From Phyllobates terribilis (taxonomy: Eukaryota): 64,000 nt of DNA. This document shows, piece by piece, positions 5,385 through 64,000 of the stretch (position 1 is its first letter; every line of letters starts with the position of its first letter). The position numbers and the translations under genes were made by a program. The notes below the pieces were generated by a model that saw only the letters and a program-made list of their open reading frames with translations, searched no databases and had not been told where the DNA came from. The stretch is from contig NW_027362763.1 in the NCBI RefSeq assembly GCF_046119375.1, positions 108,128,001-108,192,000 on the forward strand, given 5' to 3'.

Positions 5385-6830
5385 GATGGGGGCCTGGATG
5401 AACTCATAAGGGGAGGCCTGGATGGGTATATGGAGGGGGCCTGGATGGACACATTGGGGCAGGCTGGACGCATGGGGGCAGGATGGACACATGGGGGCAG
5501 GATAGACACATGGGGGGAGGGCCTGGATGGACACATAAGGGGGCCTGGATGGGTATATGGGGGGGCCTGGATGAACACATGGGGGCAGGCTGGACACATG
5601 GGGGCAGGCTGGACACATGGGGGGCCTGGATGGACACATAAGGGAGCCTGGATAGACACATAAGGGGGGCCTGGATGGGTATATGGGGGGCCTGGATGGA
5701 CACATAAGGGGGGGCCTGGATGGGTATATGGGGGGGCCTGGATGGACACATAAGGGGGCCTGGATGGGTATATGGGGGGGCAGGATGGACACATGGGGGC
5801 AGGCTGGACACATAGGGGGGCATGGATGGACACATAAGGGGGCCTGTATGGACACATAACGGGGCCTGGATGGACACATAAGGGGGGGCCTGGATGGACA
5901 CATGGGGCAGGCTGGACACATAAGGGGGCCTGGATGGACACATAAGGAGGGGCCTGAATGGGTATATGGGGGGTCTGGATGGACACATGGGGGCTAGGAT
6001 GAATATATGGGGGCAGGCTGAACACATGGGGCTAGGATGGATATATGGGGGGCAGGCTGGACACATGGGGCTAGGATGGATATATGGGGGGGAGGCTGGA
6101 CTCATGGGGGTTCGGATGGATATATGGGGGGCAGGCTGGACACATGGGGCTAGGATGGATATATGGGGGGGCAGGCTAGACACATGGGGGGGGCAGGCTG
6201 GACATATGTAGGGCAGGATGGATATATGGGGGGGCAGGCAGGATATATGGGGTGGGGCAGGTTGGACACATGGGGGCTAGGATGGATATATGGGGGGGAC
6301 AGGATGGATATATGGGGGCCAGGATGGATATATATGGGGGGGACAGTATGGATATATGGGGGCCAGGATGGATATATATGGGGGGGACAGTATGGATATA
6401 TGAAGGAGGACAGGTTGGACACATGGAGGCCAGGATGGATATATGGGGGGCAGGCTGGACACATGGAGGCCAGGATGGATATATGGGGGGCAGACTGGAC
6501 ACATGGTGGACAGGATGGATATATGGGGGGCAGAGTGAACACATGGAGGCCAGGATGGATATATGGGGGGGCAGGCTGGACACATGGAGGCCAGGATGGA
6601 TATATGGGGGGGGGCAGGCTGGACACATGGAGGCCAGGATGAATATATCAGGGGGACAGGCTGGATACATTTGGGCTAGGATAAATATATGAAGGGGCCA
6701 GGATGGACATATGGGGGCCAGAAGGGATTTATGGGGGGGTTGCAGGATGATATATGTGGGGGGCAGGATGGATATATGGGGGGGCCCAGCTGGAAAAGGG
6801 ACTTAATTACTGTCTGGGGGCCAGATTGAG
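5385..6830. repeat. G-rich ~20-23-bp minisatellite inside the hAT MITE
   Basis: Units such as gggcctggatggacacataagg, gggcaggctggacacatgg and ggccaggatggatatatgg. These explain the many spurious Pro/Gly-rich ORFs at 5258-6692. Confidence 0.95.
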
Positions 6831-14730: not shown

Positions 14731-15850
14731 TATGGCGCCCCTGCGGGTTCAGTCGCAACACATTCCACTTCAGTGGGGGCAGGGCGAGATTGCTCCTGAG
14801 GGAGAGCACAGTCCCTGGTCCCTAGCTGGAGGGTGGAACCATGTAGTGGGTGTGGGTGGAGGACATAGTTTAGGGGAGCACTTCAGTAGGTGTATAAAAA
14901 GGGGAGCCATCTTGAAAAGTGTGGTCAGTCTGCAGTGAGAGGAGTTGGGAGCAGGAGCTCAGCAGGAGCTCTGCTCAGGAAGAGGGCCTAGAGAGAGGCC
15001 CAGGACCGACTGAAGGAGAGAGGAGCAAGAAGGAAGGCTTCAGGAGGAACGAGGGTATCCTAGGGGTACGGGCAGTGCTGGAGGCCACCCGTACGCCCGA
15101 ATCTGCAGGAACGTGGAAGGATCAAGCTGCAGAGGGAACAGGCCCCTAAACTACTGGAGAACTACAAGGCTTAGCTAGAAACCGGAGGCTTCTGTACTGT
15201 TAGGGTGCAGTTGCCACAGCCACAATTACATCGCCAAAAAGGTGGCCACAGAGGGTTCAGGGGACTGCAGGTAGCCCGACAAGACCCGAGGCTACCGGCT
15301 TGGGACACTGATTGTGAGGCGCAGGGCAGGAGGGTGAGAGCCAGCGCAGAGAGAAGGCACACAGAAGGAGGTCCCGTTAAGTGCCCTTGAATTACTTGAG
15401 GGATTGCTGAACCCCTCCCTGAGTAAGCACAGGACAACGTGGGAAGTTACACCGGTACCTGTAACTTGGATTGCAACAACTGTGAGTAAACTCTGAAGAC
15501 TGCACCCCACTGTCTCTGCGAATTACTACTGCGCCATCACCCCTGCACTACACAGCAACATCCATAACAACTCTGCACAGCCCTGGAGCTAAGCTCAACC
15601 TGTGGAGAGCTAAACCAACTCTGCTGCATTTACACCAGCTCCAGAGGACCTGCTCCGCAGCGGCGGCTCCCTTTAGCCGCATACCACAGGTGGCGTCACG
15701 AACTCTATACAAGAACTATAAATACCCTGTAAATAATATCCCCATTTGATTGACCGTCCTGGGTCACGGACCGGGTCACCGCCACTGTGACATCTCCCCT
15801 GGCAACGACCGACCGGGCACCGAGTACCCCACGGCCCAGGGGGCGTGTCA
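14731..15850 (+). mobile_element. 5' LTR of a Gypsy-group element
   Basis: Starts t(a/g)tggcgcccc and ends gggggcgtgtca. Homologous to the reverse-oriented LTRs at 24966-27309 and 43429-44707. TATA-like gtataaaaag at ~14892. Confidence 0.88.
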
Positions 15851-15853
15851 ACT

Positions 15854-15871
15854 TGGCATCACAAACAGGAT
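15854..15871 (+). promoter_or_regulatory. Primer-binding site complementary to the tRNA-Ser(CGA) 3' end
   Basis: TGGCATCACAAACAGGAT lies 3 nt after the LTR. It is a 16/18 match to the complement of the vertebrate tRNA-Ser(CGA) end ...ATCCTGTTCGTGACG-CCA (recalled sequence). Both mismatches are G>A at CpG. Confidence 0.8.
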
Positions 15872-33201: not shown

Positions 33202-33632
33202 CATCACTAAGCTGTGTGACTGTGAGTCCAGCACTGATGACATCATGCAGCATCACTAAGCTGTGTGACTGTGAGTCCAGCACTGATGACATCATACAGC
33301 ATCACTAACCTGTGTGGCTGTGAATTCAGCACTGATGACATCATACAGCATTACTAACCTGTGTGGCTGTGAATTCAGCACTGATGACATCATACAGCAT
33401 TACTAACCTGTGTGGCTGTGAATTCAGCACTGATGACATCATACAGCATCACTAAGCTGTGTGACTGTGAGTCCAGCACTGATGACATCATACAGCATCA
33501 CTAACCTGTGTGGCTGTGAATTCAGCACTGATGACATCATACAGCATTACTAACCTGTGTGGCTGTGAATTCAGCACTGATGACATCATACAGCATCACT
33601 AAGCTGTGTGGCTGTGAGTGCAGCACTGAAGT
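33202..33632. repeat. 49-bp tandem repeat (~9 copies); two more units follow at 38864-38965
   Basis: Unit catcactaagctgtgtgactgtgagtccagcactgatgacatcatacag, starting at 33202, 33251 and onward. Confidence 0.95.
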
Positions 33633-36600
33633 TGACGCGCCCCCTGGGCCGTGGGGTAACCGGAGCCGGGCCTTGTGGATGCTGGGGGTTGTAGTTGACG
33701 CGCCCCCTGGGCCGTGGGGTACCCGGAGCCGGGCCTTGTGGATGCTGGGGGTTGTAGTCACCGTGGCGGTGACCAGGTCCGTGACTCAGGGCGGTCAAAC
33801 CAGGGTAGTCTATGGGTGTCTCTGTTATATATAGTCCGACTACGCCACCTGTGGGATGCGGTTATTGGGAACCGCCGCTGCGGAGCAGTCCACTGAAGTT
33901 GGTGGTATGTGCAGCAAGGTGATGTGACTCCCCACAGGAAGTGTGGAGCTTCAGGGCAGCGTGTATGGATGATGGTGGTGATAGTGCCGGGATCAGTAAT
34001 GATAACACAGAGTCGTTGCAGTGCAGTCCTAGGGTCTTTACTGGTGGGAATTATATGGGCCCCAACGAGAGTACCGGCTAGTGATGAGGGCCTGGTCAGT
34101 CTGGGAGCAATCCTAGAATCCTCCTGGCCAGGTGGAGTTGTAGGCCTGCCGTTCTGACTGTACTCTTTGGCTATCCCGCTTATAGTCGTGTTGTAGCCCA
34201 CGTCCCTGAGTGTAACGTGCTGTGCTCACCCGTATGGCTGGCGACTCGGACCTTGTGTATTCCTCGCTCCTCTGTGGCAGTACGGGTCCTTTCGTGTGGC
34301 TGAGCCTCCGGGCTTCTGATGGGCCAGGAGACCTACAATCTCCTGCCGTGCGGTTTCTGCTGCTGGATATACAATCCCCACAGACCCGGTGTCCGGTTCA
34401 ATGTATATACTCCTGCTAGGACGAGCTCTGCCAGCTCCAGTCCTCAGCTCCTTGCTCCTTCGTGTCCTACTTGACTCCTCACACTAGACTCTCACTAGAC
34501 TAACCTAACCCCGCCTCCAGACCCAGTTATAAAGGGCAGGATCCTCCCCTTTCTGGTCTGGAGCAGGAGGTGTTGCATGTAATGTCTTCCTGACCAGGAA
34601 ACTCCTGTTTTGCTCCCAGACATGGTATTACTACCACTGTGGCAACCAGACCCTCTGGGGTGCCCCATTCCCCCCTAGTAAATTTCAGTACTCGGGGACT
34701 GAACATATTTTTCAAAATAACAGGTAACAATAAACAAGGTACATTAGAATATTACAAACATTACAGTCTTTAACAGGTTACAGTATGATCTGCAACCAGG
34801 TGTCCATTCCACTGAAACAAAGTGCAATCTGAGGGACCCGTCCCAAACCCTCAACGTAGGCCCTGGGGTGGCTGCAGGGCATAGATGATCCAGGCATTGG
34901 ACCACGTCTTCGGCCTCCTCCAACGGGTTTTCGTTCAGTGGTCTGTCACGAAGGGGCACTTTTACAAGTGCAACTATTTACAGGACAGTTTTTGGGCTGC
35001 TCACAGTCCTCAGCCACTGGGTCTTTTATATATATACCCCTACGGGTAACTAAATGCAACAGGAAGAGTGTCCAAGTCACCTAAATTGTCCATTGTAAGG
35101 CAAAACACATCAATAATTAAATACATGAAAATCGCACAAGAATAATATACCCCAGGGGCAACTATTTATACTATTGGTATTTCTAATTATTCACTGAACC
35201 TGACAGGGGCCTTGCCTTTGGTGCTACGTGTTGATCTGCATAGTACGGGAGTGTGGATGGTATCTATTTCTGCACTATCTGCTACCCTGTCAGTCCTACG
35301 TGTGGGTAGATTGTAAAACTGCCTTAACCTCTCCATGGAACTGACAAGTGTATCATTGGCTGGGCCTTCTTGCTCCACTCCAGCCGGGGATCCTTCTTCC
35401 GGGGATTCTTCTTGAGCAGGCTCTTCTGGGGCATTTACAGGTTCTACTTACTGTGGAGGGTCTACTGGCGTGGGTACGACAGGTTCACTGTTAGCAGAGG
35501 GTAGATTCTCCGGGTCTGCTGTTGATGAAACTTCTGCCTCCGGGGCCAAATGTTCTTCCAACTCTACTGGGACTTCTGCAGCTTCCTGCGGGGCTGGTTG
35601 GAGAAATGTAAGGACTGGCACAACTATTGCATTATTCACTTGCGTCCATGACCAAGGAAATTCTCAGAGTACGTGCTGACCATTTATTCCACTTCCTCTG
35701 CGGGTTGAGGGGTATCTTGGCCTTCTTCAGCATGCTGTAGCTGCTTGGGACATTTCTTCAGGTGGTCTCTGGAAACTGTTGCTGTCATTTCTCCTCCATC
35801 CTTACTTATGAGGTACACCTTGGTGTTGGCATGACTTGATGGTAGAATGGTGTACGGCTCTTTTTCCCACTGGTCATCCAATTTATGGAGCCGCCTTTTT
35901 CTCTTTGGGACATGCTCTCCAGGTGACAAAGGGGCAGCATGTTGATTGTAAGTCTTCTCTTGCCTTTCTCTTGCTTGGGACAGACTTCTTTCAACATTTT
36001 CTTGTACCTTACAGTATTGCTGTTGCCGCTCAGTGTCCCAATCCGCATCTGGTGAGGCGTCCTCTGGTGTCAGAACTCCCATATACAGACCGATGGGTAG
36101 CTTTCCAGGCCGTGCTCTCATCAGGTAAGCAGGTGTGCAGTTGGTGGAATTCACTGGGATATGATTGTAGAGGTCCACCAGGTCTGGAAACTTTTCTGGC
36201 CATAGGCTGCGTTCCTCCAGGGGCAACGTCTTCAGTAGGTCTATCACCACTTGATTCATCTTTTCACACATTCCGTTGGTCTGGGGATGATAAGGCGTTG
36301 TACGGAGTTCCTTGCAGCCGTACAGGTTGCAGAATTCCTGGAATACTTCCGCTTCGAAGGCCGGACCTTGGTCAGTTAGCACACGTTCTGGGTAACCATG
36401 CGGGCGGCAGAAGTGCTGTTGGAAAGCTCTGGCTGCTGTCTGAGCCATTTGGTCCTTGACTGGCACTACTACCAGGAACCGGGAGTAGTGGTCTACAATG
36501 GTGAGAGCGTAGACATAGCCTGACCTGCTCGGGGATAGCTTCACATGGTCTAGGGCTACCAGTTCGAGTGGCTGCTTGGTGATGATGGGCTGCAGGGGAG

Positions 36601-38863
36601 CCCTCTGGCCGTCACGGTCTTTTCTTCTCAGGTTGCATGGTCCGCATTCTCGACACCACCTCTCGAATGCTTTCCTCATGCCAGCCCAATAGAACCGTTC
36701 ACGTAGCAGGACTTCCAGCTTCTTCCATCCGAAGTGTCCTGCTCCATCGTGGTACGCTTCCAAGACCATTGACGCATCCCGCCTCGGGACTACCACCTGC
36801 CAGACCAGCTCATGTGTCCGGGAGTTGATGGCTCTTCGACACAGCTTCCCTTCATAGATGAACAGCTTGCCTTTTTTTTTCTACAGCTGCTTGGTCTCCT
36901 CAGTAGCATCTGGATCAGGGTGTGCGTCAGCTCGGGTCAGCAACTCTTTGACAAGGAGGACAGCCGGGTCACTGTCTTGTGTTTCTGCCCATCCATGGTG
37001 GGGCAATAGATTAAATGTGGCCTCCCTGTTGGCAGAGCACCTGTTCTTCACACAATGGGAGCACTGCTTTATCCCATGGCGGTGGAAAGAGGGGATCTCT
37101 ATCTCTTCCAGCTCCTCGAGGTCTTCTCCCCCGTCTGGCAAGTTAGGCATTCTGGACAGCGCATCTGCGTTTGCATTCTTGTGCCCAGCCCGGTACTTGA
37201 TGGTGAATTCGTAATTAGACAGTCGTGCCATCCATCTTTGTTCCAGGGCACCAAGTTTTGCAGCGTCCAGGTGTGTCAGCGGGTTATTATCCGTGAAGAC
37301 GGTGAATTTGGAGGAGGCGAGATAATGCTTGAAGCGCTCTGTCACGGCCCAGACTACGGCGAGGAACTCCAACTTGAAGGAGCTGTAGTTCTCTGGGTTC
37401 CTTTCTGTGGGCCGGAGCTTCCTGCTGGCATAGGCTATTACCCTTTCTCTGCCTTGTTGGATCTGGGACAGCACCGCTCCCAGTCCCACGTTGCTCGCGT
37501 CCGTGTGAAGGATGAAGGGCTGTCCATAATCAGGGTAGGCCAGGACCTCGTCTCCTGTGAGAGCCATCTTCAGCCTGGTGAAGGACTCGTCTTCCAGCTT
37601 GTCCCAATTGAATGGGGGTTTCTGGTTCTTGGCCTTTCTGGACTGGCCTATCAGGAGGTCCTGCATGGGTGCCGCCATCTTGGTGAAGCCTGGTATAAAC
37701 CTTCGGTAGTAGCCTACCAACCTGAGGAACTGCCGCACTTCTTTAATGGTGGAAGGTCTCGGCCAGTCCTTGATTAGGGTGATCTTGACGGGGTCTGGTG
37801 CTACACCGTCAGCGCTTACCACATGTCCTAAGTACTGTACTTTGTGCTTCAGCAGGTGGCACTTTGATGGCTTCACCTTCAGGCCAAAGCCAGCCAGGGC
37901 TTCAAACACTTCCGCCAGGTGCTTCAGATGATCCTCATATGTCTTGGAGAATACTATGACGTCATCCAGGTACAGGAGGACTGTCTCGAAATTCTTATGT
38001 CCTAGACAGCACTCCATGAACTGCTGGAAGGTTCCTGGGGTGTTGCAGAGCCCGAATGGCATGCAGTTGAACTCGCTGAGGCCCATCGGGGTGGTGAATG
38101 CGGTCTTTTCCTTATCTGCCTCTGCTACAGGAACCTGCCAATACCCACTAGTAAGATCCAAAGTAGAGAAATAAGTAGCAGATTTTAATGCAGCTAGTGA
38201 CTCCTCTATCCTGGGTAGCGGGTATGCATCTTTATGAGTTATGCGGTTGATTTGCCTGTAGTCTACACAAATTCTCATTGTGCCATCCTTTTTCTTTACA
38301 AGAACTAATGGAGCTGCCCAGGGGCTACAACTATCTCTTATTACCCCAGCCTCCTTCATCTCTCGTAACATCCCCTTGGCATTCTGATAGTGTGCTGGCG
38401 GTACAGGCCGGTACCTTTCTTTAATGGGTGGATGGTCTCCCGTGGGGATATGGTGTTGAACCCCCTTTACCTGCCCGAAGTCGAGTGGGTGAGCCTCCGG
38501 GCTTCTGATGGGGCCAGGAGACCTACAATCTCCTGCCGTGCGGTTTCTGCTGCTGGGTATGTAATCCCCACAGCCTCGGACTCCGGTGTCCGGATCTCTG
38601 TATGTACTCTGGCCAGGACGAGCTCTGCCAGCTCCAGTCCTCAGCTCCTTGCTCCTTCGTGTCCTACTTGATTCCTCACACAGAACTCAACTCTAGACTC
38701 ACTAACCCCGCCTCCAGACCCAGTTATAAAGGGCAGGATCCTCCCCTTTCTGGTCTGGGCAGGAGGTATTGCTTGTAATGTGTTCCTGACCAGGAAACCC
38801 CTGTTTTGCTCCCAGACATGGTATTACTAACACTGTGGCAACCAGACCCTCTGGAGTGTCACA
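33633..38863 (-). mobile_element. Gypsy LTR retrotransposon, gag/protease/PBS deleted: partial 5' LTR (38494-38863), pol, PPT (34668-34675), 3' LTR (33633-34667)
   Basis: RT-RNaseH-integrase order; purine tract AGGGGGAA directly before the 3' LTR on the minus strand; 38494-38863 is homologous to 34306-34667. Confidence 0.93.
35187..38493 (-). pseudogene. Gypsy pol (reverse transcriptase, RNase H, integrase)
   Basis: RT motifs SPWAAPLVLV, CVDYRQIN, LDLTSGYWQ and YLDDVIVF; RNase H TDASNVGLGAVL; integrase H-GHFG...C..C, LDHVKL, TDQG and YHPQTNGMCE. One in-frame TAG at 36881-83 separates the two large ORFs, and the C-terminal tail ends RSTRSTKGKAPVRFSE. Confidence 0.95.
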
Positions 38864-43428: not shown

Positions 43429-44707
43429 TGATGCGCCCCCTTGGCCGTTGGGTACTCGGTAGCCAGGCCGGTCGGTGCTGGGGATGTCACGGTGGCAGTG
43501 ACCTGGTCCGTGACCCAGGGTGGTCAATTAAAGGAAAAGGTAAAAGGGGAATAAAGTTTTTAGAGATAATGTTCGTGACGCCACCTGTGGTATGCAGCTA
43601 TATGTGGCCGCCGCTGCGGAGCAGGTCCTCTGGAGCTGATGGTGACGCAGCAGAGTTGGTTCAGCTCTCCACAGGCAGAGCTAAGCTCCAGGGCAGTGTA
43701 TGATGAATTGTGCAGGTAGATGTTGTTGGTGCGGTGAAATGCAGGACTGGTGGCACAGCAATTATTCACAGACACAGTGGGGTGCAGTCTTCAGGTTTTA
43801 CTCACAGTTCTTAAGGTCTCCAAGTTACAGTCAACGGTGTGCAACTGCCCACATCGTCCTGTGTCCTCCGGGGTAGTGATCCAGCAAACTCTCAGGCATT
43901 TCAGGAGCACTTAGACGGGACCCCGTTCTATGTACCGTTCCTGGTCGTCTCACTGTGCTGGCTCTCACCCTCCTGCCCTGCACCTCACAATCAGTGTCCC
44001 AAGCCAGTGTACTCGGGCTTGTCGGGCGACTTGCAATCCCCTGGACCCTGTGTGGCCACCTTTTCAGCGATATAATTGTGGGTTTTGGCTGCAACACCTT
44101 GAAAATGCTGCAGCCTCCAGTTGGCTAGCTGAGTCTGGTTGTTCTCCACTAGTTTTGTGGCCGGTCCCCTTCTGCAGCCTGATCCCTCCACGTCAGCGTG
44201 AATTGGGGCGCACGGGTGGCTTCTGCACTCACCGTGCCCCTGGGATCCCTTCTGTCTCTCTGGAGCCTGTCCCACTGCTCCTCTCTCCTCTTTCCTCACT
44301 TTCCTCCTGGGCCTCTCTCACTAGGCCCGACTCCTCTCTCTCTACTGAACTCCTGCTCCAAGCACTGGAGCCAGGAGCATGGACCCTTCTGCACTGCTCT
44401 CCCAAGCAGGACTGGAACCTTCTAAATGTTTCTCTCTGTCTTTTATACCCTTTCTGTCTGTGCTCCACTCAACTTCTTCCTCCACCCACACCCACTACAT
44501 GGTTCCCCCTCTCTTGGTTCCCCCCCTTCTAGCCAGGGACAGGGCTCAGCAGTGGACAAGTGCATCTTGCCCCTCCTGCTGGTCTGGAGTGGTGTAATGT
44601 TGGATGTAGGTGTGTGGTAGTACTCCGTCCTTACCTGAGAGTGGGGTACCACACCCCTGGGTGAGATGCAGTACCTCTGTGGCAACTGGACCTGCAGGGG
44701 CGCCACA
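43429..44707 (-). mobile_element. Solo Gypsy LTR (1279 bp)
   Basis: TGATGCGCCCC ... GGGGCGCCACA with an exact TSD AAGG at 43425-28 and 44708-11. Confidence 0.95.
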
Positions 44708-48671: not shown

Positions 48672-48830
48672 GTAAAGACTGCAGATCATAGGCATTGGTA
48701 AAGCTTCAATTCCCCCTGTGAATAAATTCACTAAACGAGCTTCAAAAATTATATTACTTCACAAAACTAATATAATACATCATAGTATGTACATAATGAC
48801 TGCAAATGCAATACTCACTCTTTATACAAT

Positions 48831-50977
48831 AATATAACTACTATAATACTGCCCCTATGTCCAAGAATATAACTGCTATAATACTGCTCCTATATACAAA
48901 AATATAACTACTATAATACTGCCCCCTATGTTCAAGAATATAACTACTATAATACTGCCCCCATGAACAAGAATATAACTACTATAATACTGCCCCTTTG
49001 TACAAGAATATAACTACTATAATACTGCCCCCTATGTTCAAGAATATAACTACTATAATACTGCCCCCATGAACAAGAATATAACTACTATAATACTGCC
49101 CCTTTGTACAAGAATATAACTACTATAATACTGCTCCTATGTACAAAAATATAACTACTATAATACTGCCCCCTATGTTCAAGAATATAACTACTATAAT
49201 ACTGCCCCCATGAACAAGAATATAACTACTATAATACTGCTCCTATGTACAAAAATATAACTACTATAATACTGCCCCCTATGTCCAAGAATATAACTAC
49301 TATAATACTGCCCCCTATGTCCAAGAATATAACTACTATAATACTGCCCCCTATGTACAAGAATATAACTACTATAATGCTGCTCCTATGTACAAGAATA
49401 TAACTACTATAATACTGCTCCTGTGTACAAGAATATAACTACTATAATACGGCTCCTATGTACAAGAATATAACTACTATAATACTGCTCCTATGTACAA
49501 AAATATAACTACTATAATACTGCCCCCTATGTTCAAGAATATAACTACTATAATACTGCCCCCATGAACAAGAATATAACTACTATAATACTGCTCCTAT
49601 GTACAAGGATATAACTACTATGATACTGCTCCTATGTACAAGAATATAACTACTATAATACTGCTCCTATGTACAAGAATATAACTACTATAATACTGCT
49701 CCTATGTACAAGAATATAACTACTATAATACTGCCCCTATGTACAAGAATATAACTACTATAATACTGCCCCTATGTACAAGAATATAACTACTATAATA
49801 CTGCCCCATATGTACAAGAATATAACTACTATAATACTGCCCCCTATGTACAAGAATATAACTACTATAATACTGCCCCTATGTACAAGAATATAACTAC
49901 TATAATACTGCCCCATATGTACAAGAATATAACTACTATAACACTGCCCCTATGTACAAGAATATAACTACTATAATACTGCCCCTATGTACAAGAATAT
50001 AACTACTATAATACTGCCCCATATGTACAAGAATATAACTACTATAATACTGCTCCTATGTACAAGACTATAACTACTATAATACTGCCCCTATGTACAA
50101 GAATATAACTACTATAATGCTGCCCCATATGTACAAGAATATAGCTACTATAATACTGCTCCTATGTACAAGAATATAACTACTGTATTCCTGCCCCTAT
50201 GTACAAGAATATAACTACTATAATGCTGCCCCATATGTACAAGAATATAACTACTATAATACTGCCCCATATGTACAAGAATATAACTACTATAATACTG
50301 CCCCCTATGTACAAGAATATAACTACTATAATACTGCCCCTATGTACAAGAATATAACTACTATAATACTGCCCCATATGTACAAGAATATAACTACTAT
50401 AATACTGCCCCCTATGTACAAGAATATAACTACTATAATACTGCCCCTATGTACAAGAATATAACTACTATAATACTGCCCCATATGTACAAGAATATAA
50501 CTACTATAACACTGCCCCTATGTACAAGAATATAACTACTATAATACTGCCCCTATGTACAAGAATATAACTACTATAATACTGCCCCATATGTACAAGA
50601 ATATAACTACTATAATACTGCTCCTATGTACAAGACTATAACTACTATAATACTGCTCCTATGTACAAGAATATAACTACTATAATACTGCCCCTATGTA
50701 CAAGAATATAACTACTATAATGCTGCCCCATATGTACAAGAATATAGCTACTATAATACTGCTCCTATGTACAAGAATATAACTACTGTATTCCTGCCCC
50801 TATGTACAAGAATATAACTACTATAATGCTGCCCCATATGTACAAGAATATAACTACTATAATACTGCCCCATATGTACAAGAATATAGCTACTATAATA
50901 CTGCTCTTATGTACAAGAATATAACTACTATAATACTGCTCCTATGTACAAGAATATAACTACTGTATTCCTGCATA
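48831..50977. repeat. 35-36-bp intronic minisatellite (~60 copies)
   Basis: Unit aagaatataactactataatactgcccctatgtac. Confidence 0.97.
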
Positions 50978-53526: not shown

Positions 53527-55103
53527 CAGGGGCGGACACAGACTGTAGTGGGCCCCTGTGCAAGAAATTTTTGGGGGCCCCCCCCGCCCTTCATAAGGCA
53601 ACAAAGTTATGTAAACATAACCCCCCCCATGTGCATCTCTCACCCCCCTATGTGCAGCTCACCCCCCGTGCATCTCTCATCCCCCTCCGTGCATCTCTCA
53701 CCCCCCCGTGCATCTCTCATCCACCCCCCGTGCATCTCTCATCCCCCCCGTGCATCTCTCATCCACCCCCCGTGCATCTCTCATCCCCTCCGTGCATCTC
53801 TCATCCCCCCCGTGCATCTCTCATCCCCCCGTGCATCTCTCATCCCCCCCGTGCATCTCTCATCCCCCCGTGCATCTCTCATCCCCCCCGTGCATCTCTC
53901 ATCCCCCTCCGTGCATCTCTCATCCACCCCCTGTGCATCTCTCATCCCCTCCGTGCATCTCTCACCCCCCCGTGCATCTCTCATCCACCCCCCATGCATC
54001 TCTCATCCCCTCCGTGCATCTCTCATCCCCCCCGTGCATCTCTCACCCCCCCGTGCATCTCTCATCCCCCCCGTGCATCTCTCATCCCCCCCGTGCATCT
54101 CTCACCCCCCCGTGCATCTCTCATCTCTCCCCTCCCCCCCATGTGCATCTCTCATCTCTCCCCTCCCCCCATGTGCATCTCTCATCTCTCCCCTCCCCCC
54201 ATGTGCATCTCTCATCTCTCCCCTCCCCCCATGTGCATCTCTCATATCTCCCCTCCCCCCATGTGCATCTCTCCCCTCCCCCCATGTGCATCTCTCATCT
54301 CTCCCCCCCATGTGCATCTCTCATCTCTCCCCTCCCCCCCATGTGCATCTCTCATCTCTCCCCTCCCCCATGTGCATCTCTCATCTCTCCCCTCCCCCAT
54401 TTTTATCTCTCATCGCTCCCCTCCCCCCATGTGCATCTCTCATCTCTCCCCTCCCCCCCATGTGCATCTCTCATCTCTCCCCTCCCCCCATGTGCATCTC
54501 TCATCTCTCCCCTCCCCCCCATGTGCATCTCTCATCTCTCCCCTCCCCCCATGTGCATCTCTCATCTCTCCCCTCCCCCCCATGTGCATCTCTCATCTCT
54601 CCCCTCCCCCCCATGTGCATCTCTCATCTCTCCCCTCCCCCCCATGTGGATCTCTCATCTCTCCCCTCCCCCATGTGCATCTCTCATCTCTCCCCTCCCC
54701 CCATGTGCATCTCCCATTCCCCCCACTCCTAGTTAATTGTATTTAAAAAAAAATAAAACTTGTTATACTTACCCCCATGCGATCCCTGCAGAATCCTGGC
54801 GCTCGTCCAAATCGCTGACACCAGGTTCTCCTGCCTTCCGGTCATGTGACGGCGCCGTCACATGACCGGAAGTCAGAGGAATTATGAGATGTCCTGGACC
54901 CGGCGCTTTGCATGGGGCCGGGGGCCCCATGAGGAGAGAGACGCACAAGAGGGGGGCTCCGAGGGGGCTCCTACCGGCCGGGCCCCATACTGGAGTCAGG
55001 GCAGTCATGCCCTGATGGCGGCCCTGCTGGAGGCTGGAGGGGACCCTCTCCCTCAGGGCCCCTGTTCAATGAACTGGCTGCACGGGCGGTAGTTCCGCCC
55101 CTG
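53527..55103. mobile_element. hAT MITE (CAGGGGCGGA...TCCGCCCCTG), third nesting level
   Basis: Exact 8-bp TSD CTTCATCC at 53519-26 and 55104-11. Confidence 0.92.
53620..54725. repeat. C-rich minisatellite (~20-bp units grading into ~31-bp units)
   Basis: cccccccgtgcatctctcat, then ctcatctctcccctcccccccatgtgcatct. This is the source of the spurious Pro-rich ORFs. Confidence 0.95.
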
Positions 55104-56169
55104 CTTCATCCTGCTTCAGGACCTGTGGTGACATCACAGTTATGTACCTTGATGTCATCACAGGTCCTCTACAGGTCTACCCTGCGGGAGTCTAGAACAG
55201 GGGGCAGCATCCACCCCACACAGTGTGCTCTGAGCCACCGCAGACCAGAGCACACTGTCAATGTTTAGTGATTGTCTGTGGCGGTGCCGCGGACCGGCTG
55301 AAAAACCCCAACGGCCCGGTCCTGGTCCGCGGACCGGCGGTTGGGGACCTCTGGTATAGGAGACACAGTGGTTATACCAGCAAACGTTGCACTACAGTCC
55401 TGTGTGCTCCTGTTGCTGAAATTGCTGGACTTAGCACCAGGTGTCGGGGGCCAGGAAAAATCCTTTTTTTTTCATCTAAATCCTCCTTTTTTTTTCCTCC
55501 TTCACACTGTACAAATACCCGTCTTATTAACCTTTTGGTGTGTCCCCCCCCCCCAAAAAAAAGCGTGTCTCTGATTTGTCAGACACAAATATAACTGTTG
55601 AAAATAGTCTGGTGTAGGCTAGAGAAACAGAAGTGTTGTTTTGCACTTCCACGGTTCAAACCTCTGTATTATCCATTTTGGGCCATTTGTATCTAAAAAA
55701 AAAACAGTTTGAGTGTGTCGCTCACTGTTCAGCCGCAAATATCTCTATTTAAAAAAGTGTGGTATACCCCAGTAAACAATAACTGTGGTTTTGCCATCCC
55801 ACGGTAAAAAATCTCTATTATTCAGCTTTTGGTAGTTTTTTCCGTAAAGAAAAACAGTAGTGTCTCCTGACTGTTGTGACACAAAAATATATCTGTTGAA
55901 AATAGTCTTGTGTAGGCCCGACATCCCAGTGTGGTTTCGCAGTTCCACGGGTCAAATCGCTGTACTATCCAGTTTTGGGCCTTTGGTATCTAAAAAAAAG
56001 CAGTTTGAGTGTGTCGCTCACTGTTCAGCCGCAAATATCTCTATTTAAAAAAGTGTGGTATACCCCAGTAAACAATAACTGTGGTTTTCCTCTTCCACGG
56101 TTCCAATCTACTCTTTATTACCCTTTTTCCATTGATAGTGCAAGTGTAAGCTATTTTACTTCATTTACA

Positions 56170-59100
56170 ATGGGCAAGGCGCGTGGCAAGGGACGTGGAA
56201 GTGGACGTTCTGGTGATGGTTCGTGCAGAGGACGGGGCCGTGGCCAAGGTGAAAATGTGCCACAACCAACAGCCACATCTTCTCGCTCCCACTTTTTGAC
56301 CGAATTGCTAGGGAAGCACAGAACAACACCAGTATTGAGAACTGATCAGTGTGAACAGGTTATTAATTGGATAGCAGATAATACTTCCAGTTACCTGGGC
56401 ACCACCACCTCCGGTCTGTCTTCCACACGGTCAACTCTTAGTAGCCGTGAGTCTCGACCGCATACTCCTCCTCACCCTGATGCTCCTTCCTCCCACCTTG
56501 CTGAGTGTCGTCAGACAGCAAGTGATCCCACACTTGGACACGCTGAAGAGCTGTTCACTGGTCCATTTCCATATTTGGGCCCCTCGCCTGATACGCTTGA
56601 AGTGGTGGAAGAGGAGATCCCATGTTGCGATGCCCAAATATTTGAACAGCCACGGCCACAGGAAGTCGACATTGGCAATCTGTCACAAGAGGTAGACGAT
56701 GACGAGACACAATTGCCAGGAAGTGAGGAGGAGGATCGTGGTGCGCAAGTGGAAGAGGAGGAGGTGGTGGATGATCTAGTAACTGACCCAACGTGGAAGG
56801 AGGACATGCAGAGTGAGGCCAGCAGCACACAGGGGGAGGGAGGCAGAGTACCCCAACAGGCAGGAAGAAGCAGTGTGGTGGCCGCTGACAGAAGGCAGGC
56901 AACCGTTCCCCGTAACACCAACACGAGGGACGTTGCCAGTACAAGCGGTAGATCTTCCAGAGTCTGGAATTTTTTTAAAGACTCTGCTGATAACCCCAAA
57001 AAGGCCATAGTTCCACCATCCATGCCAGCATCGGCAGGGGTGACAAAACTACCAGCCTGACCACCACCAGCATGATCAGGCACATGGCAGCAAAGCACCC
57101 GACTTTGTGGGGCGAAACCCAGGGTCCACGACCAGTGTCAGCGGGTGTCACCACTGCTTCTTCCACTGTTGTGCGTGCAATAGAACCCCCTGTTGTGTGT
57201 GCAAGGCAATCCCCTGTCCATACTGCATGTAAAGATGCCCCCTCCTCTCAGTCTTCACTTGTTATGGCAGTTTCTCAAGAAACGGCATCAACGTCCACGT
57301 CCACGTCCCATCGCAGGGTTCAATTGTCCATATCCCAGACCTTTGAACGAAAGCGGAAATTCGCAGCTAACGCCCCGCAGGCCACAGTCCTAAATTCGCA
57401 CATTTCACGACTGCTTGCGTTGGAAATGCTGCCTTTTTGGCTGGTGGAGACGGAATCCTTCCGCAATCTTATGGCGGTTGCCGTCCCTCGGTACTCGGTC
57501 CCCAGCCGACACTATTTTGCCCGGTGTGCCATCCCCGCACTACACAAGCACGTGTCCCAAAGCATCTGCCGTGCCCTCAACAACGCAGTTACTGGGAGAG
57601 TCCACCTGACAACGGACACGTGGACAAGTGCTTGTGGCCAGGGATGGTACATCTCTCTGACGGCACACTGGGTAAACATAGTGGAAGCCGGGACCCAGTC
57701 GGACCTTGGGACGGAACACATCCTCCCCACACCGAGGATTGCGGGCCCTATGTCAGTCAGAGTTGCCCCCACAGTGTACAGCTCCTGCGCATCCTCCTCC
57801 TCCTCCTCATGTTCAGCCTCCATCTCAGATATCACCACATCAGTTACAAGCTGGAAGCATTGCAGTACTGCCTCCGCCAAGCGGCAACAGGCTGTGCTGA
57901 AACTCATAAGCTTAGGTGATAAACCTCACACTGCTTGTGAGTTGTGGACAGCTGTGAAAGAGCAGGCAGATCTGTGGCTGAGACCGCTGAACCTACATCC
58001 AGGCATGGTCGTGTGTGACAATGGCCGTAACCTGGTGGCGGCTCTGAGGCGAGGTGAGATCACACACGTACCATGCCTGGCTCATGTGCTTAACCTCGTG
58101 GTTCAGCGGTTTCTTAAATCGTACCCCGAGTTGCCAGATCTGCTCGTGAAAGTACGCCGCCTGTCAGCTCATTTTCGCAAGTTGGCTACAGCTTCCGCCG
58201 CCCTTGCTGTGTTGCAGCAGCGTTTGCAGCTTCCGGCACACCGACTGGTGTGTGATGTCCCCACACGTTGGAACTCTACCCTCCACATGTTGCAAAGGAT
58301 TTGTGAGCAGAAGAGAGCAGTTGTGGAGTACCAGCTGCAACAAGGCCGTCGATATTCAGGTCAGACTCCACACATAAGACCTCAGGAGTGGACCTGGATG
58401 TCTGACATATGTACCATCCTGACAAACTTTGAGGAGGCCACCAAGATGGTGAGTGGCGATGACGCCATCATTAGTGTCAGCATTCCACTTGTCTGTCTTT
58501 TGCAACACTCTCTGCAGAGAATTAAAGAGGAGGCATTGCAGCCAGAGTATGATGAGATGGATCAAGAAGCCGTAGCGGGCGATTACACACAGCCCAGCCT
58601 CATCTCATCCCAACGTGCATTGGGGGACAATGAGGGAGAGGAGGAAGAGGAGCAGGAGGAGGAAGAACAGGAGCTGCTATCATGCGTTGTAGACGGTAGT
58701 ACCTGTACAAGTGTCATACCGTCGGTTCAGCGTGGGTGGCCTGAGGACAGGGGGGAGGAGTAAGAGGAGGAGGAGAGCATGGTCAGTCGTCATCTTGGTG
58801 AGGACACGGAAATCTTGCCCGTTACCCGTCTGGCACGCATGGCTGACTTTATGTTACGCTGCCTTAACCGTGACCCTCGCGTTGTCAAAATGTTGGGTGA
58901 CAGTCATTACTGGTCGGTGACACTTGTAGACCCCCGCTACAAGGAGAACTTTCACTCTCTTATTCCTGAGGTGGAGAGGTCTACAAAAATGGGGCAGTAC
59001 CAGAAGGCCCTTGCTGCAGAACTCTAAAAAAAATTCCCATCTGAACACGGTAACGGCAGAGGTCACAGTTCGTTGCCTAAGGAGTACAGGCTAGAGAGAT

Positions 59101-59527: not shown

Positions 59528-59669
59528 AGTCAAATCCACTGTGTTATTTCGGGAGGTGTATTCACATGCACCGCTTCACACCCACACATGGGTATACGCT
59601 TCCTCGTTTCGGCTGTTTTATCTTCTTCTCCTTATCCTCAGCCTCCACCACCACTATACCATCAGGGTG

Positions 59670-62600
59670 CCAGCATTGCAAGTTCCTCCGTCCTTATTTT
59701 TGGCAGCTTTTGCTTGCAAGGCATAAGGAAATACTATGGGACACCCACTCCCCAATAATGGGACTTATGTTTGTAATATGCTGTACTGCATGGCTCTTGT
59801 AAGGGGCATTGCAAGTTGCTCCGTCCTAATTTTTGGCAGCTTTTGCTTGGAAAGCATAAGCAAGTACTATGGGAGACCCACTCCCCAATAATGGGACTTA
59901 TGTTTGTAATATGCTGTACTGCATGGCTCTTGTAAGGGGCATTGCAAGTTGCTCCGTCCTAATTTTTGGCAGCTTTTGCTTGGAAAGCATAAGCAAATAC
60001 TAGGGGAGACCCACTCCCCAATAATGGGACTTATGTTTGTAATATGCTGTACTGCATGGCTCTTGTAAGGGGCATTGCAAGTTGCTCCTTCCTAATTTTT
60101 GGCAGCTTTTGCTTGCAAGGCATAAGCAAATACTATGGGACACCCACTCCCCAATAATGGGACTTATGTTTGTAATATGCTGTACTGCATGGCTCTTGTA
60201 AGGGGCATTGCAAGTTGCTCCGTCCTAATTTTTGGCAGCTTTTGCTTGGAAAGCATAAGCAAATACTATGGGAGACCCACTCCCCAATAATGGGACTTAT
60301 GTTTGTAATATGCTGTACTGCATGGCTCTTGTAAGGGGCATTGCAAGTTGCTCCATCCTAATTTTTGGCAGCTTTTGCTTGGAAAGCATAAGCAAATACT
60401 ATGGGACACCCACTCCCCAATAATGGGACTTATGTTTGTAATATGCTGTACTGCATGGCTCTTGTAAGGGGCATTGCAAGTTGCTCCGTCCTAATTTTTG
60501 GCAGCTTTTGCTTGCAAAGCATAAGCAAATACTATGGGACACCCACTCCCCAATAATGGGACTTATGTTTTAATATGCTGTACTGCATGGCTCTTGTAAG
60601 GGGCATTGCAAGTTGCTCCGTCCTAATTTTTGGCAGCTTTTGCTTGCAAGGCATAAGCAAATACTATGGGAGACCCACTCCCCAATAATGGGACTTATGT
60701 TTGTAATATGCTGTACTGCATGGCTCTTGTAAGGGGCATTGCAAGTTGCTCCTTCCTAATTTTTGTCAGCTTTTGCTTGCAAGGCATAAGCAAATACTAT
60801 GGGACACCCACTCCCCAATAATGGGACTTATGTTTGTAATATGCTGTACTGCATGGCTCTTGTAAGGGGCATTGCAAGTTGCTCCGTCCTAATTTTTGGC
60901 AGCTTTTGCTTGCAAGGCATAAGCAAATACTATGGGAGACCCACTCCCCAATAATGGGACTTATGTTTGTAATATGCTGTACTGCATGGCTCTTGTAAGG
61001 GGCATTGCAAGTTGCTCCGTCCTAATTTTTGGCAGCTTTTGCTTGGAAAGCATAAGCAAATACTATGGGAGACCGACTCCCCAATAATGGGACTTATGTT
61101 TGTAATATGCTGTACTGCATGGCTCTTTTAAGGGGCATTGCAAGTTGCTCCGTCCTAATTTTTGGCAGCTTTTGCTTGGAAAGCATAAGCAAATACTATG
61201 GGAGACCCACTCCCCAATAATGGGACTTATGTTTGTAATATGCTGTACTGCATGGCTCTTGTAAGGGCCATTGCAAGTTGCTCCGTCCTAATTTTTGGCA
61301 GCTTTTGCTTGGAAAGCATAAGCAAATACTAGGGGAGACCCACTCCCCAATAATGGGACTTATGTTTGTAATATGCTGTACTGCATGGCTCTTGTAAGGG
61401 GCATTGCAAGTTGCTCCTTCCTAATTTTTGTCAGCTTTTGCTTGCAAGGCATAAGCAAATACTATGGGACACCCACTCCCCAATAATGGGACTTATGTTT
61501 GTAATATGCTGTACTGCATGGCTCTTGTAAGGGGCATTGCAAGTTGCTCCATCCTAATTTTTGGCAGCTTTTGCTTGGAAAGCATAAGCAAATACTATGG
61601 GAGACCCACTCCCCAATAATGGGACTTATGTTTGTAATATGCTGTACTGCATGGCTCTTGTAAGGGGCATTGCAAGTTGCTCCGTCCTAATTTTTGGCAG
61701 CTTTTGCTTGCAAGGCATAAGCAAATACTATGGGAGACCCACTCCCCAATAATGGGACTTATGTTTGTAATATGCTGTACAGCATGGCTCTTGTAAGGGG
61801 CATTGCAAGTTGCTCCGTCCTAATTTTTGGCAGCTTTTGCTTGGAAAGCATAAGCAAATACTAGGGGACACCCACTCCCCAATAATGGGACTTATGTTTG
61901 TAATATGCTGTACTGCATGGCTCTTGTAAGGGGCATTGCAAGTTGCTCCGTCCTAATTTTTGGCAGCTTTTGCTTGGAAAGCACAAGCAAATACTATGGG
62001 AGACCCACTCCCCAGTAATGGGACTTATGTTTGTAATATGCTGTACTGCATGGCTCTTGTAAAGGGCATTGCAAGTTGCTCCGTCCTAATTTTTGGCAGC
62101 TTTTGCTTGGAAAGCATAAGCAAATACTATGGGAGACCCACTCCCCAATAATGGGACTTATGTTTGTAATATGCTGTATTGCATGGCTCTTGTAAGGGGC
62201 GTTGCAAGTTGCTCCGTCCTAATTTTTGGCAGCTTTTGCTTGCAAGGCATAAGCAAATACTATGGGAGACCCACTCCCCAATAATGGGACTTATGTTTGT
62301 AATATGCTGTATTGCATGGCTCTTGTAAGGGGCATTGCAAGTTGCTCCGTCCTAATTTTTGGCAGCTTTTGCTTGCAAGGCATAAGCAAATACTATGGGA
62401 CACCCACTCCCCAATAATGGGACTTATGTTTGTAATATGCTGTACTGCATGGCTCTTGTAAGGGGCATTGCAAGTTGCTCCATCCTAATTTTTGGCAGCT
62501 TTTGCTTGGAAAGCATAAGCAAATACTATGGGACACCCACTCCCCAATAATGGGACTTATGTTTGTAATATGCTGTACTGCATGGCTCTTGTAAGGGGCA

Positions 62601-64000
62601 TTGCAAGTTGCTCCGTCCTAATTTTTGGCAGCTTTTGCTTGCAAAGCATAAGCAAATACTATGGGACACCCACTCCCCAATAATGGGACTTATGTTTTAA
62701 TATGCTGTACTGCATGGCTCTTGTAAGGGGCATTGCAAGTTGCTCCGTCCTAATTTTTGGCAGCTTTTGCTTGCAAGGCATAAGCAAATACTATGGGAGA
62801 CCCACTCCCCAATAATGGGACTTATGTTTGTAATATGCTGTACTGCATGGCTCTTGTAAGGGACATTGCAAGTTGCTCCGTCCTAATTTTTGGCAGCTTT
62901 TGCTTGGAAAGCATAAGCAAATACTATGGGAGACCCACTCCCCAATAATGGGACTTATGTTTTAATATGCTGTACTGCATGGCTCTTGTAAGGGGCATTG
63001 CAAGTTGCTCCGTCCTAATTTTTGGCAGCTTTTGCTTGCAAGGCATAAGCAAATACTATGGGAGACCGACTCCCCAATAATGGGACTTATGTTTGTAATA
63101 TGCTGTACTGCATGGCTCTTGTAAGGGGTATTGCAAGTTGCTCCGTCCTAATTGTTGGCAGCTTTTGCTTGGAAAGCATAAGCAAATACTATGGGAGACC
63201 CACTCCCCAATAATGGGACTTATGTTTGTAATATGCTGTACTGCATGGCTCTTGTAAGGGCCATTGCAAGTTGCTCCGTCCTAATTTTAGGCAGCTTTTG
63301 CTTGGAAAGCATAAGCAAATACTAGGGGAGACCCACTCCCCAATAATGGGACTTATGTTTGTAATATGCTGTACTGCATGGCTCTTGTAAGGGGCATTGC
63401 AAGTTGCTCCTTCCTAATTTTTGTCAGCTTTTGCTTGCAAGGCATAAGCAAATACTATGGGACACCCACTCCCCAATAATGGGACTTATGTTTGTAATAT
63501 GCTGTACTGCATTGCTCTTGTAAGGGGCATTGCAAATTGCTCCATCCTAATTTTTAGCAGCTTTTGCTTGGAAAGCATAAGCAAATACTATGGGAGACCC
63601 ACTCCCCAATAATGGGACTTATGTTTGTAATATGCTGTACTGCATGGCTCTTGTAAGGGGCATTGCAAGTTGCTCCGTCCTAATTTTTGGCAGCTTTTGC
63701 TTGCAAGGCATAAGCAAATACTATGGGAGACCCACTCCCCAATAATGGGACTTATGTTTGTAATATGCTGTACTGCATGGCTCTTGTAAGGGGCATTGCA
63801 AGTTGCTCCGTCCTAATTTTTGGCAGCTTTTGCTTGCAAAGCATAAGCAAATACTATGGGACACCCACTCCCCAATAATGGGACTTATGTTTGTAATATG
63901 CTGTACTGCATGGCTCTTGTAAGGGGCATTGCAAGTTGCTCCGTCCTAATTTTTGGCAGCTTTTGCTTGCAAGGCATAAGCAAATACTATGGGAGACCCA
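59670..64000. repeat. 133-bp satellite array (~32 copies visible, runs off the window)
   Basis: ggacttatgt at 59761 and 59894 gives a period of 133; units are highly homogeneous. Confidence 0.98.

Follow-up and report, generated by a model that had tools for sequence, protein, structure and literature searches.

In FIV, the nucleotides at the very 5' end of the primer tRNA are reported to pair with an inverted-repeat stem-loop in U5 (Miller et al. 2001, as cited in PMC12509431). In HIV-1 and HIV-2, a primer activation signal and an A-rich loop are described as pairing with the T stem or the anticodon loop of the primer (PMC3185550, PMC11181671). The accounts in PMC5371799 and PMC1635307 give Ty3 and Ty1 a bipartite PBS and Drosophila gypsy two PBSs. 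Helenus and TRIMp3 are short non-coding elements that keep Pol III A and B boxes, and the tRNA-like part of Helenus, where that paper treats it, has no complementarity to the element's own PBS (PMC10886601). The debate over contacts outside the PBS in primer choice has relied mostly on engineered HIV mutants, and the models conflict. A natural lineage of at least 59,256 PBS-bearing copies (counted as LTR-end plus PBS matches across all subfamilies), which likely switched primer twice and re-matched two distant LTR sites at each likely switch, supplies natural RNA-tRNA pairs, both matched and mismatched, on which a direct test can be made.

These two sites, which we call M1 and M2, lie in the LTR of a Gypsy retrotransposon of the frog Phyllobates terribilis. 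M1, 11-14 nt long, repeats the start of the PBS and lies 133-186 nt upstream of the genuine site. M2, which is complementary to primer tRNA nt 1-12, is 60-100 nt away from the PBS. As in FIV, M2 is a site in the predicted U5 that is complementary to the 5' end of the primer tRNA and is predicted to lie in a loop; unlike the FIV site as it has been described, it belongs to a Gypsy retrotransposon, matches tRNA-Ser over up to 12 nt at that distance from the PBS, and is accompanied by an internal PBS copy (M1) and by natural co-switching. The likeness to HIV-1 and HIV-2, as those systems are presented in the papers cited, lies in sites outside the PBS that need adaptation along with it for a primer switch, but the best-bound part of the tRNA here is nt 1-12 and not the T stem, and the switches are natural where those of HIV were engineered. 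With Ty3, Ty1 and gypsy the frog element shares the state of an LTR retrotransposon with more than one tRNA-binding segment, putatively so for M1 and M2. The second sites of those elements are described as binding other parts of the tRNA, namely the T and D arms and the anticodon stem, and those of Ty3 and gypsy lie near the RNA 3' end, whereas M1 repeats the same 3'-end match and sits in the predicted U5; a predicted polyadenylation signal ~200 nt upstream of M1 argues against a second site at the RNA 3' end. Helenus and TRIMp3 likewise hold tRNA-related sequence within the LTR, but in the frog element the match is confined to the two ends of the tRNA and changes with the PBS. An identity with these elements, as described, was rejected, since there is no tRNA body with Pol III boxes and the element is ~8 kb with pol, not a non-coding one of under 1 kb.

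The window, the whole 64,000-nucleotide stretch of DNA analysed, contains at 33,629-38,863 a Ty3/Gypsy retrotransposon on the minus strand, with pol frames in the Gypsy order of RT, RNase H and integrase (Table 1). Because pol is on the minus strand, the LTR motifs are read on that strand and are complementary to tRNA in the element's RNA. The closest named proteins to its pol are anuran (70-89%) and fish (46-57%) Gypsy-type pol. This copy is internally deleted, has lost its own PBS, with the 5' LTR fragment abutting pol, and shows no clean target-site duplication; it may have been captured without integrase. It sits inside a 49-bp host tandem repeat. All three two-LTR relatives that we analysed have TG...CA LTRs, a PBS, a PPT and 4-bp target-site duplications, their LTRs being 95.7-97.7% identical and their pol 91-93% identical to that of the window; the LTR is ~970 nt and the whole element ~8 kb including pol. 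The 3'-side LTR of the window copy is 92-94% identical to their 5' LTRs over ~980 aligned nt. Between LTR end and PBS, this lineage has a spacer of 3-8 nt, where 2 is usual, and the 3' LTRs still end cleanly at CA, which implies unusual end trimming. An AGTAAA or ATTAAA hexamer is found 195-229 nt upstream of M1 in 15/15 LTRs. Because this predicted polyadenylation signal lies upstream of both motifs, M1 and M2 would belong to U5, and the signal is the one basis for that placement.

Table 1. Features of the Gypsy element in the window, in window coordinates.
Feature	Position	Strand	Remarks
63-nt duplicate of LTR end, then 4-nt spacer typical between LTR and PBS	33629..33695	(-)	
3'-side LTR	33696..34667	(-)	TG start at 34667, CA end at 33696
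M2, complement of tRNA-Ser(AGA) nt 1-6 + 7-11, 3-nt bulge	33754..33767	(-)	
Second GACTAC	33805..33810	(-)	local pairing with M1 possible in AGA-type subfamilies; absent in CGA-type
M1, 12-nt copy of PBS start, complementary to tRNA-Ser(AGA) 3' end	33836..33847	(-)	
Hairpin immediately upstream of M1, compensatory changes	33858..33875	(-)	alignment fold
Predicted polyadenylation signal AGTAAA	34037..34042	(-)	~195 nt upstream of M1
TATA-like box, probable U3	34526..34533	(-)	sequence
Polypurine tract	34668..34676	(-)	comparison with two-LTR relatives
Pol fragment	35687..38479	(-)	gag + protease region absent
Integrase	35687-36880	(-)	frame differs from RT/RNase H
RT + RNase H	36884-38479	(-)	part of pol fragment
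5' LTR fragment, first ~380 nt	38481..38863	(-)	fused directly to pol

The primers were identified from the frog's own tRNA genes. A tRNA/PBS pattern search of the genome gave 195 matches, and ARAGORN, run on 20 of these loci, called L098 as Ser(CGA), L106-L110 as Ser(AGA), and a retrotransposon locus (L094) spuriously as Ala. The ends of these Ser(AGA) and Ser(CGA) genes agree with the tRNA-Ser ends that an earlier note on this DNA had given. The Ser(AGA) genes form a cluster at G000:C3 ~7.08-9.27 Mb (L106-L120), some of them beside Gly or Arg tRNA genes. The 18-nt PBS of the window subfamily matches host Ser(AGA), and that of sister subfamilies Ser(CGA); for the window subfamily a Ser(TGA) gene with the same ends may also fit. 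The same note had predicted a PBS of Ser(AGA/TGA) type for full-length relatives, and a Ser(AGA) PBS is what follows the 5' LTR in 13/30 loci most like the window LTR, the rest running into flanking DNA, and in 3/3 two-LTR copies with 0-1 mismatch. A Ser(CGA) PBS follows an LTR of the window subfamily in 0/30. Two queries with the CGA motif returned 60 loci, 14 of them with a PBS, which is Ser(CGA) in all 14. We found no third primer type among the 100 listed of 488 variant-PBS matches; those 100 are decayed forms of the two PBSs already known, apart from one that is likely flank. A tRNA-Ser variant fitting the commonest PBS variant has 0 matches in the genome, so the PBS variants were treated as decay and as uninformative.

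M1 follows the PBS type throughout. In the window LTR it reads CCGACTACGCCA and is followed by CCTGTGG, as the earlier note had it, and homologous LTRs in the window carry TTCGTGACGCCA instead, at 43572, 26106 and, on the reverse strand, 15691. Many of the tRNA-pattern matches proved to be LTR elements whose PBS runs into the T loop, so the sample for tabulation was picked by PBS alone: 59 of the first 100 listed matches, with clustered tRNA genes left out, plus a duplicate of L002. Dropping that duplicate and two tRNA-like copies without CCA left 57 loci. M1 is present 133-186 nt upstream of the PBS in 50 of these, of which 27 are AGA for both M1 and PBS, 23 are CGA for both, and none is discordant; among the other seven, M1 is displaced by a duplication in L171 and missing from six. 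Adding 27 loci from the LTR queries, M1 type equals PBS type in 77/77 unique loci of this one genome that carry both. The motif is shared by other loci of the window subfamily and is not private to one copy. By chance, an 11-mer with at most 1 mismatch to the PBS start arises in 361/102,000 shuffles of the 250 nt upstream. Identity between M1 and PBS holds at positions 1-11 in 20-23 of 23 CGA loci and 24-27 of 27 AGA loci and falls to 0-1 loci at positions 15-16, and PBS positions 1-11 are the acceptor-stem strand plus NCCA. Many copies (among L091-L105 and L121-L179) have tRNA sequence past the 18-nt PBS, through the T loop, to ~50 nt, and this is read-through past the normal stop on the primer. 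M1 can mislead tools that place LTR ends by PBS.

The window LTR has GTAGTC at 33754-59, within M2, and again at the second site listed in Table 1. The earlier note had placed the first at the homologous 5' position; its homology to GTCACG holds when the alignment is anchored on the LTR-end side and fails otherwise. A 3-nt insertion gave rise to this GTAGTC, so that GCCAC next to it is shifted out of register by 3 nt. The second GTAGTC, which the note had held equally able to pair with GACTAC, is not general, for the CGA-type subfamilies have no equivalent. When binding was scored over positions 40-125 nt upstream of the PBS in 50 loci, nt 1-7 of the cognate tRNA were better bound than those of the other tRNA in 48 (25/27 AGA, 23/23 CGA), and nt 1-12 in 23/27 AGA and 22/23 CGA. 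Along either tRNA, nt 1-12 is the best-bound 12-mer, and the tRNA interior is not above background. In the AGA lineage of the window, with its bulged M2, the cognate advantage over nt 1-12 is small (mean -16.8 vs -14.6 kcal/mol, 23/27). M2 is weakened in L133, L138 and L142, and most variants still pair by way of G-U pairs or with a bulge of 2-5 nt. The in-register scan sometimes broke ties in favour of a neighbouring site, and its word list gives no clean count. The predicted fold places M2 in a stem's loop; the flanking-helix count of 46/50 is a raw figure without a null control. Opening M2 with the PBS occupied is predicted to cost 3-6 kcal/mol, and tRNA binding to be net favourable in 53/55.

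M2 is complementary over its last 6-7 nt to PBS and M1 alike, which raises the possibility of an intramolecular switch, in which M2 would pair with the PBS or M1 in naked RNA, masking or freeing the PBS with no extra tRNA contact. Such pairing has a probability >0.5 in 5/55 single copies, and in AGA subfamilies a local anti-M1 segment is predicted to pair with M1 at a mean of 0.35. We nevertheless regard this switch as highly unlikely, because mean M2-M1 and M2-PBS probabilities are only 0.03-0.05 and the two halves of M2 stand in the order expected of a match to the tRNA, not of one to M1 or the PBS. The run goes on with GCCA, in agreement with tRNA nt 8-11 and at odds with PBS 12-15, and the base opposite tRNA G7 is C in 26/26 in-register CGA matches, where pairing with the PBS would require U.

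The earlier note had read the two motifs as halves of an opposite-strand tRNA-like element, its acceptor stem kept by compensatory change, and on the plus strand of the window the order is indeed that of a tRNA 5' end, ~80 nt, and a tRNA 3' end with CCA. As an isolated 94-mer the acceptor-like stem forms with a probability of 0.17 as RNA. In context, this falls to 0.000 as RNA and 0.006 as DNA, and among 50 relatives the opposite strand exceeds 0.5, with any partner in the M2-containing region, in 8 as RNA and 6 as DNA. In sense RNA, M1-M2 pairing is predicted at a mean probability of 0.03 (30 AGA) and 0.05 (25 CGA). The two halves are thus not predicted to pair on either strand; folding of the alignment found no M1-M2 pair and instead a covarying hairpin upstream of M1, with compensatory changes in 2-17/35 rows per pair at 5/6 pairs. 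ARAGORN called no tRNA in the window, and Rfam, searched over the LTR, gave no tRNA match up to E 10; a tRNA gene or known RNA family inside the LTR was ruled out on these grounds. We judge the tRNA-like element to be the most improbable of the readings weighed here. As far as sequence can tell, each half matches the tRNA itself rather than the other half. Further conserved stems without an Rfam match lie in the 150 nt upstream of M1, as does a long-range helix that ends right before M1 and has apparent compensatory changes.

A survey of 35 loci with other LTR ends shows M2-like sites apart from M1. One LTR family, unrelated in U5 and without M1, perfectly complements tRNA nt 1-10 at -31 in 6 loci, a match equalled in 0-4/100 shuffles. 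This complement of the tRNA-Ser(AGA) 5' end, ~31 nt upstream of the PBS, is seen in L228, L232-L234, L251 and L252 and, with one mismatch, in L147. Both motifs are missing from other Ser(AGA)-primed LTR families, in clusters of 14 and 8 loci, so M1 and M2 are not a general requirement.

To count primer changes we used a U5 tree of 56 regions and 198 columns, with M1, M2, spacer and PBS excluded and with near-duplicates and two rows poorly aligned upstream omitted. This tree needs 2 primer-type changes in 200/200 bootstrap trees, and a single AGA clade is rejected (p-AU 0.024). M2 was re-matched by in-register substitutions in an AGA group of 3 rows and by a 3-nt insertion in the other AGA group, of 27 rows, which includes the lineage of the window and in which, with a midpoint root, the window subfamily branches first. 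A tree of the upstream LTR gives 4 changes and is mosaic, so recombination blurs the switch count, and it was left unused for counting events. It is likely, from these sequences, that two separate primer switches lie behind the rewriting of M1 and M2 in one genome with two tRNA-Ser species. The proposal that both halves changed together is borne out in that M1 and M2 follow the PBS type, through two likely independent switches; coupling to primer choice stands as co-variation with PBS type, without the tRNA-like-stem framing. By comparison of the copies, M1 and M2 are general across a very large lineage and coupled to primer choice.

Some copies preserve traces of templating from PBS to M1. 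In L047, L171 and L214 an 18-nt PBS is joined to post-M1 sequence, with the joint no more than 2 nt from PBS position 18, and L220, from the same element as L171, has an extra piece on the 5' side only that is unlike both LTRs, as would be expected if a plus-strand strong-stop end had landed on the M1 complement of another template. The M1 of L218 is 18 nt long in the 5' LTR and short in the 3' LTR. Priming at M1 would be one reading of L216 and L217, in which M1 runs straight into the internal region; the 9.9 kb covered there showed no 3' LTR. Templating would give M1 a one-step route for following a primer switch, and the contention that the joint change is hard to explain by drift is weakened to that extent: a single templated event can, albeit rarely, overwrite M1 with PBS sequence. 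Only 3 exact 18-nt M1 sites exist genome-wide, two of them M1-to-PBS deletions, and joints of PBS to post-M1 sequence number 2 for one CGA subfamily pattern against the 59,256 matches across all subfamilies. Such events seem too rare for neutral upkeep of the M1 match, and M2 cannot be templated from the PBS, so templating fails to explain it.

It is accordingly very improbable that the motifs are a neutral by-product, with M1 repeatedly overwritten from the PBS in reverse transcription and the M2 match a matter of luck. L218 does show that templated rewriting occurs, but its rarity largely refutes this account, M1 is held at 11-14 nt and not 18, and M2 tracks in both switches. A role at the DNA stage, the main rival, is unlikely, though less so: the M1 complement in minus-strand strong-stop DNA would guide strand transfer, either by pairing with the second packaged RNA at its free PBS or by receiving the plus-strand end. 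The joints in L047, L171 and L214, together with L220, indicate that the M1 complement can accept a plus-strand end. Piekna-Przybylska, in 2010, is said to have described a tRNA-Lys3-like sequence in HIV-1 U3-R that promotes minus-strand transfer. That sequence, like M1 and M2, is a primer tRNA complement embedded in an LTR; as reported, it differs from the frog motifs, which lie in the predicted U5, match the two tRNA ends only, and track two primers. The joints are nonetheless rare against 59,256 matches and resemble errors, and a DNA-stage role leaves unexplained the fit of M2 to tRNA nt 8-11 and the M2-like sites without M1.

We lean towards the reading that M1 and M2, matching both ends of the primer tRNA, serve as extra tRNA-binding sites in the predicted U5 of a Gypsy RNA. 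Annealing of the tRNA 3' end to the PBS would open the acceptor stem, and M2, exposed in its loop, would pair with the freed tRNA 5' strand and stabilise the initiation complex; on the modelled folds and energies we consider this step fairly probable, and by analogy anchoring of the primer's freed 5' strand, as proposed for FIV, is most likely what M2 does. The part given to M1 is possible and is put forward tentatively: it would dock the tRNA 3' end over the acceptor arm only, as a short capture or hand-off site out-competed by the longer PBS. After a primer switch, M1 would be rewritten by PBS templating and M2 by small mutations, and selection would then keep both matches. More doubtful is a complete second tRNA dock in U5, made of M1 plus M2, that would prise open both acceptor-stem strands and capture the tRNA. 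The tRNA 3' end would then be handed to the true PBS, or the second packaged RNA tethered, and the dock would be kept short of a full PBS and reprogrammed by PBS templating at each primer change.

In the literature outside subscription journals and repeat databases, we found no mention of a truncated PBS copy conserved in U5 and none of natural co-switching in a Gypsy lineage. A metagenome scan for relatives gave 3 unrelated chance matches, and scans of viral collections gave no relative and one PBS-like match (L224).

Other features were recorded along the way. At 15840-15871 (+) of the window, a 5'-type LTR end precedes a Ser(CGA) PBS that has decayed, and the M1 of this LTR is at 15691. In L180, a copy of the window subfamily, a different Gypsy element is apparently nested from ~1,300 nt past the PBS, and its pol is 39% identical to that of the window. 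The window also has tandem arrays at 59540-64000, 48765-50974, 5386-6794 and 53622-54724, with units of 133 bp and ~35/71 bp and two others more degenerate. Two long open frames of 384 and 589 codons lie at 55906-58763 (+) and are unrelated to the LTR finding.
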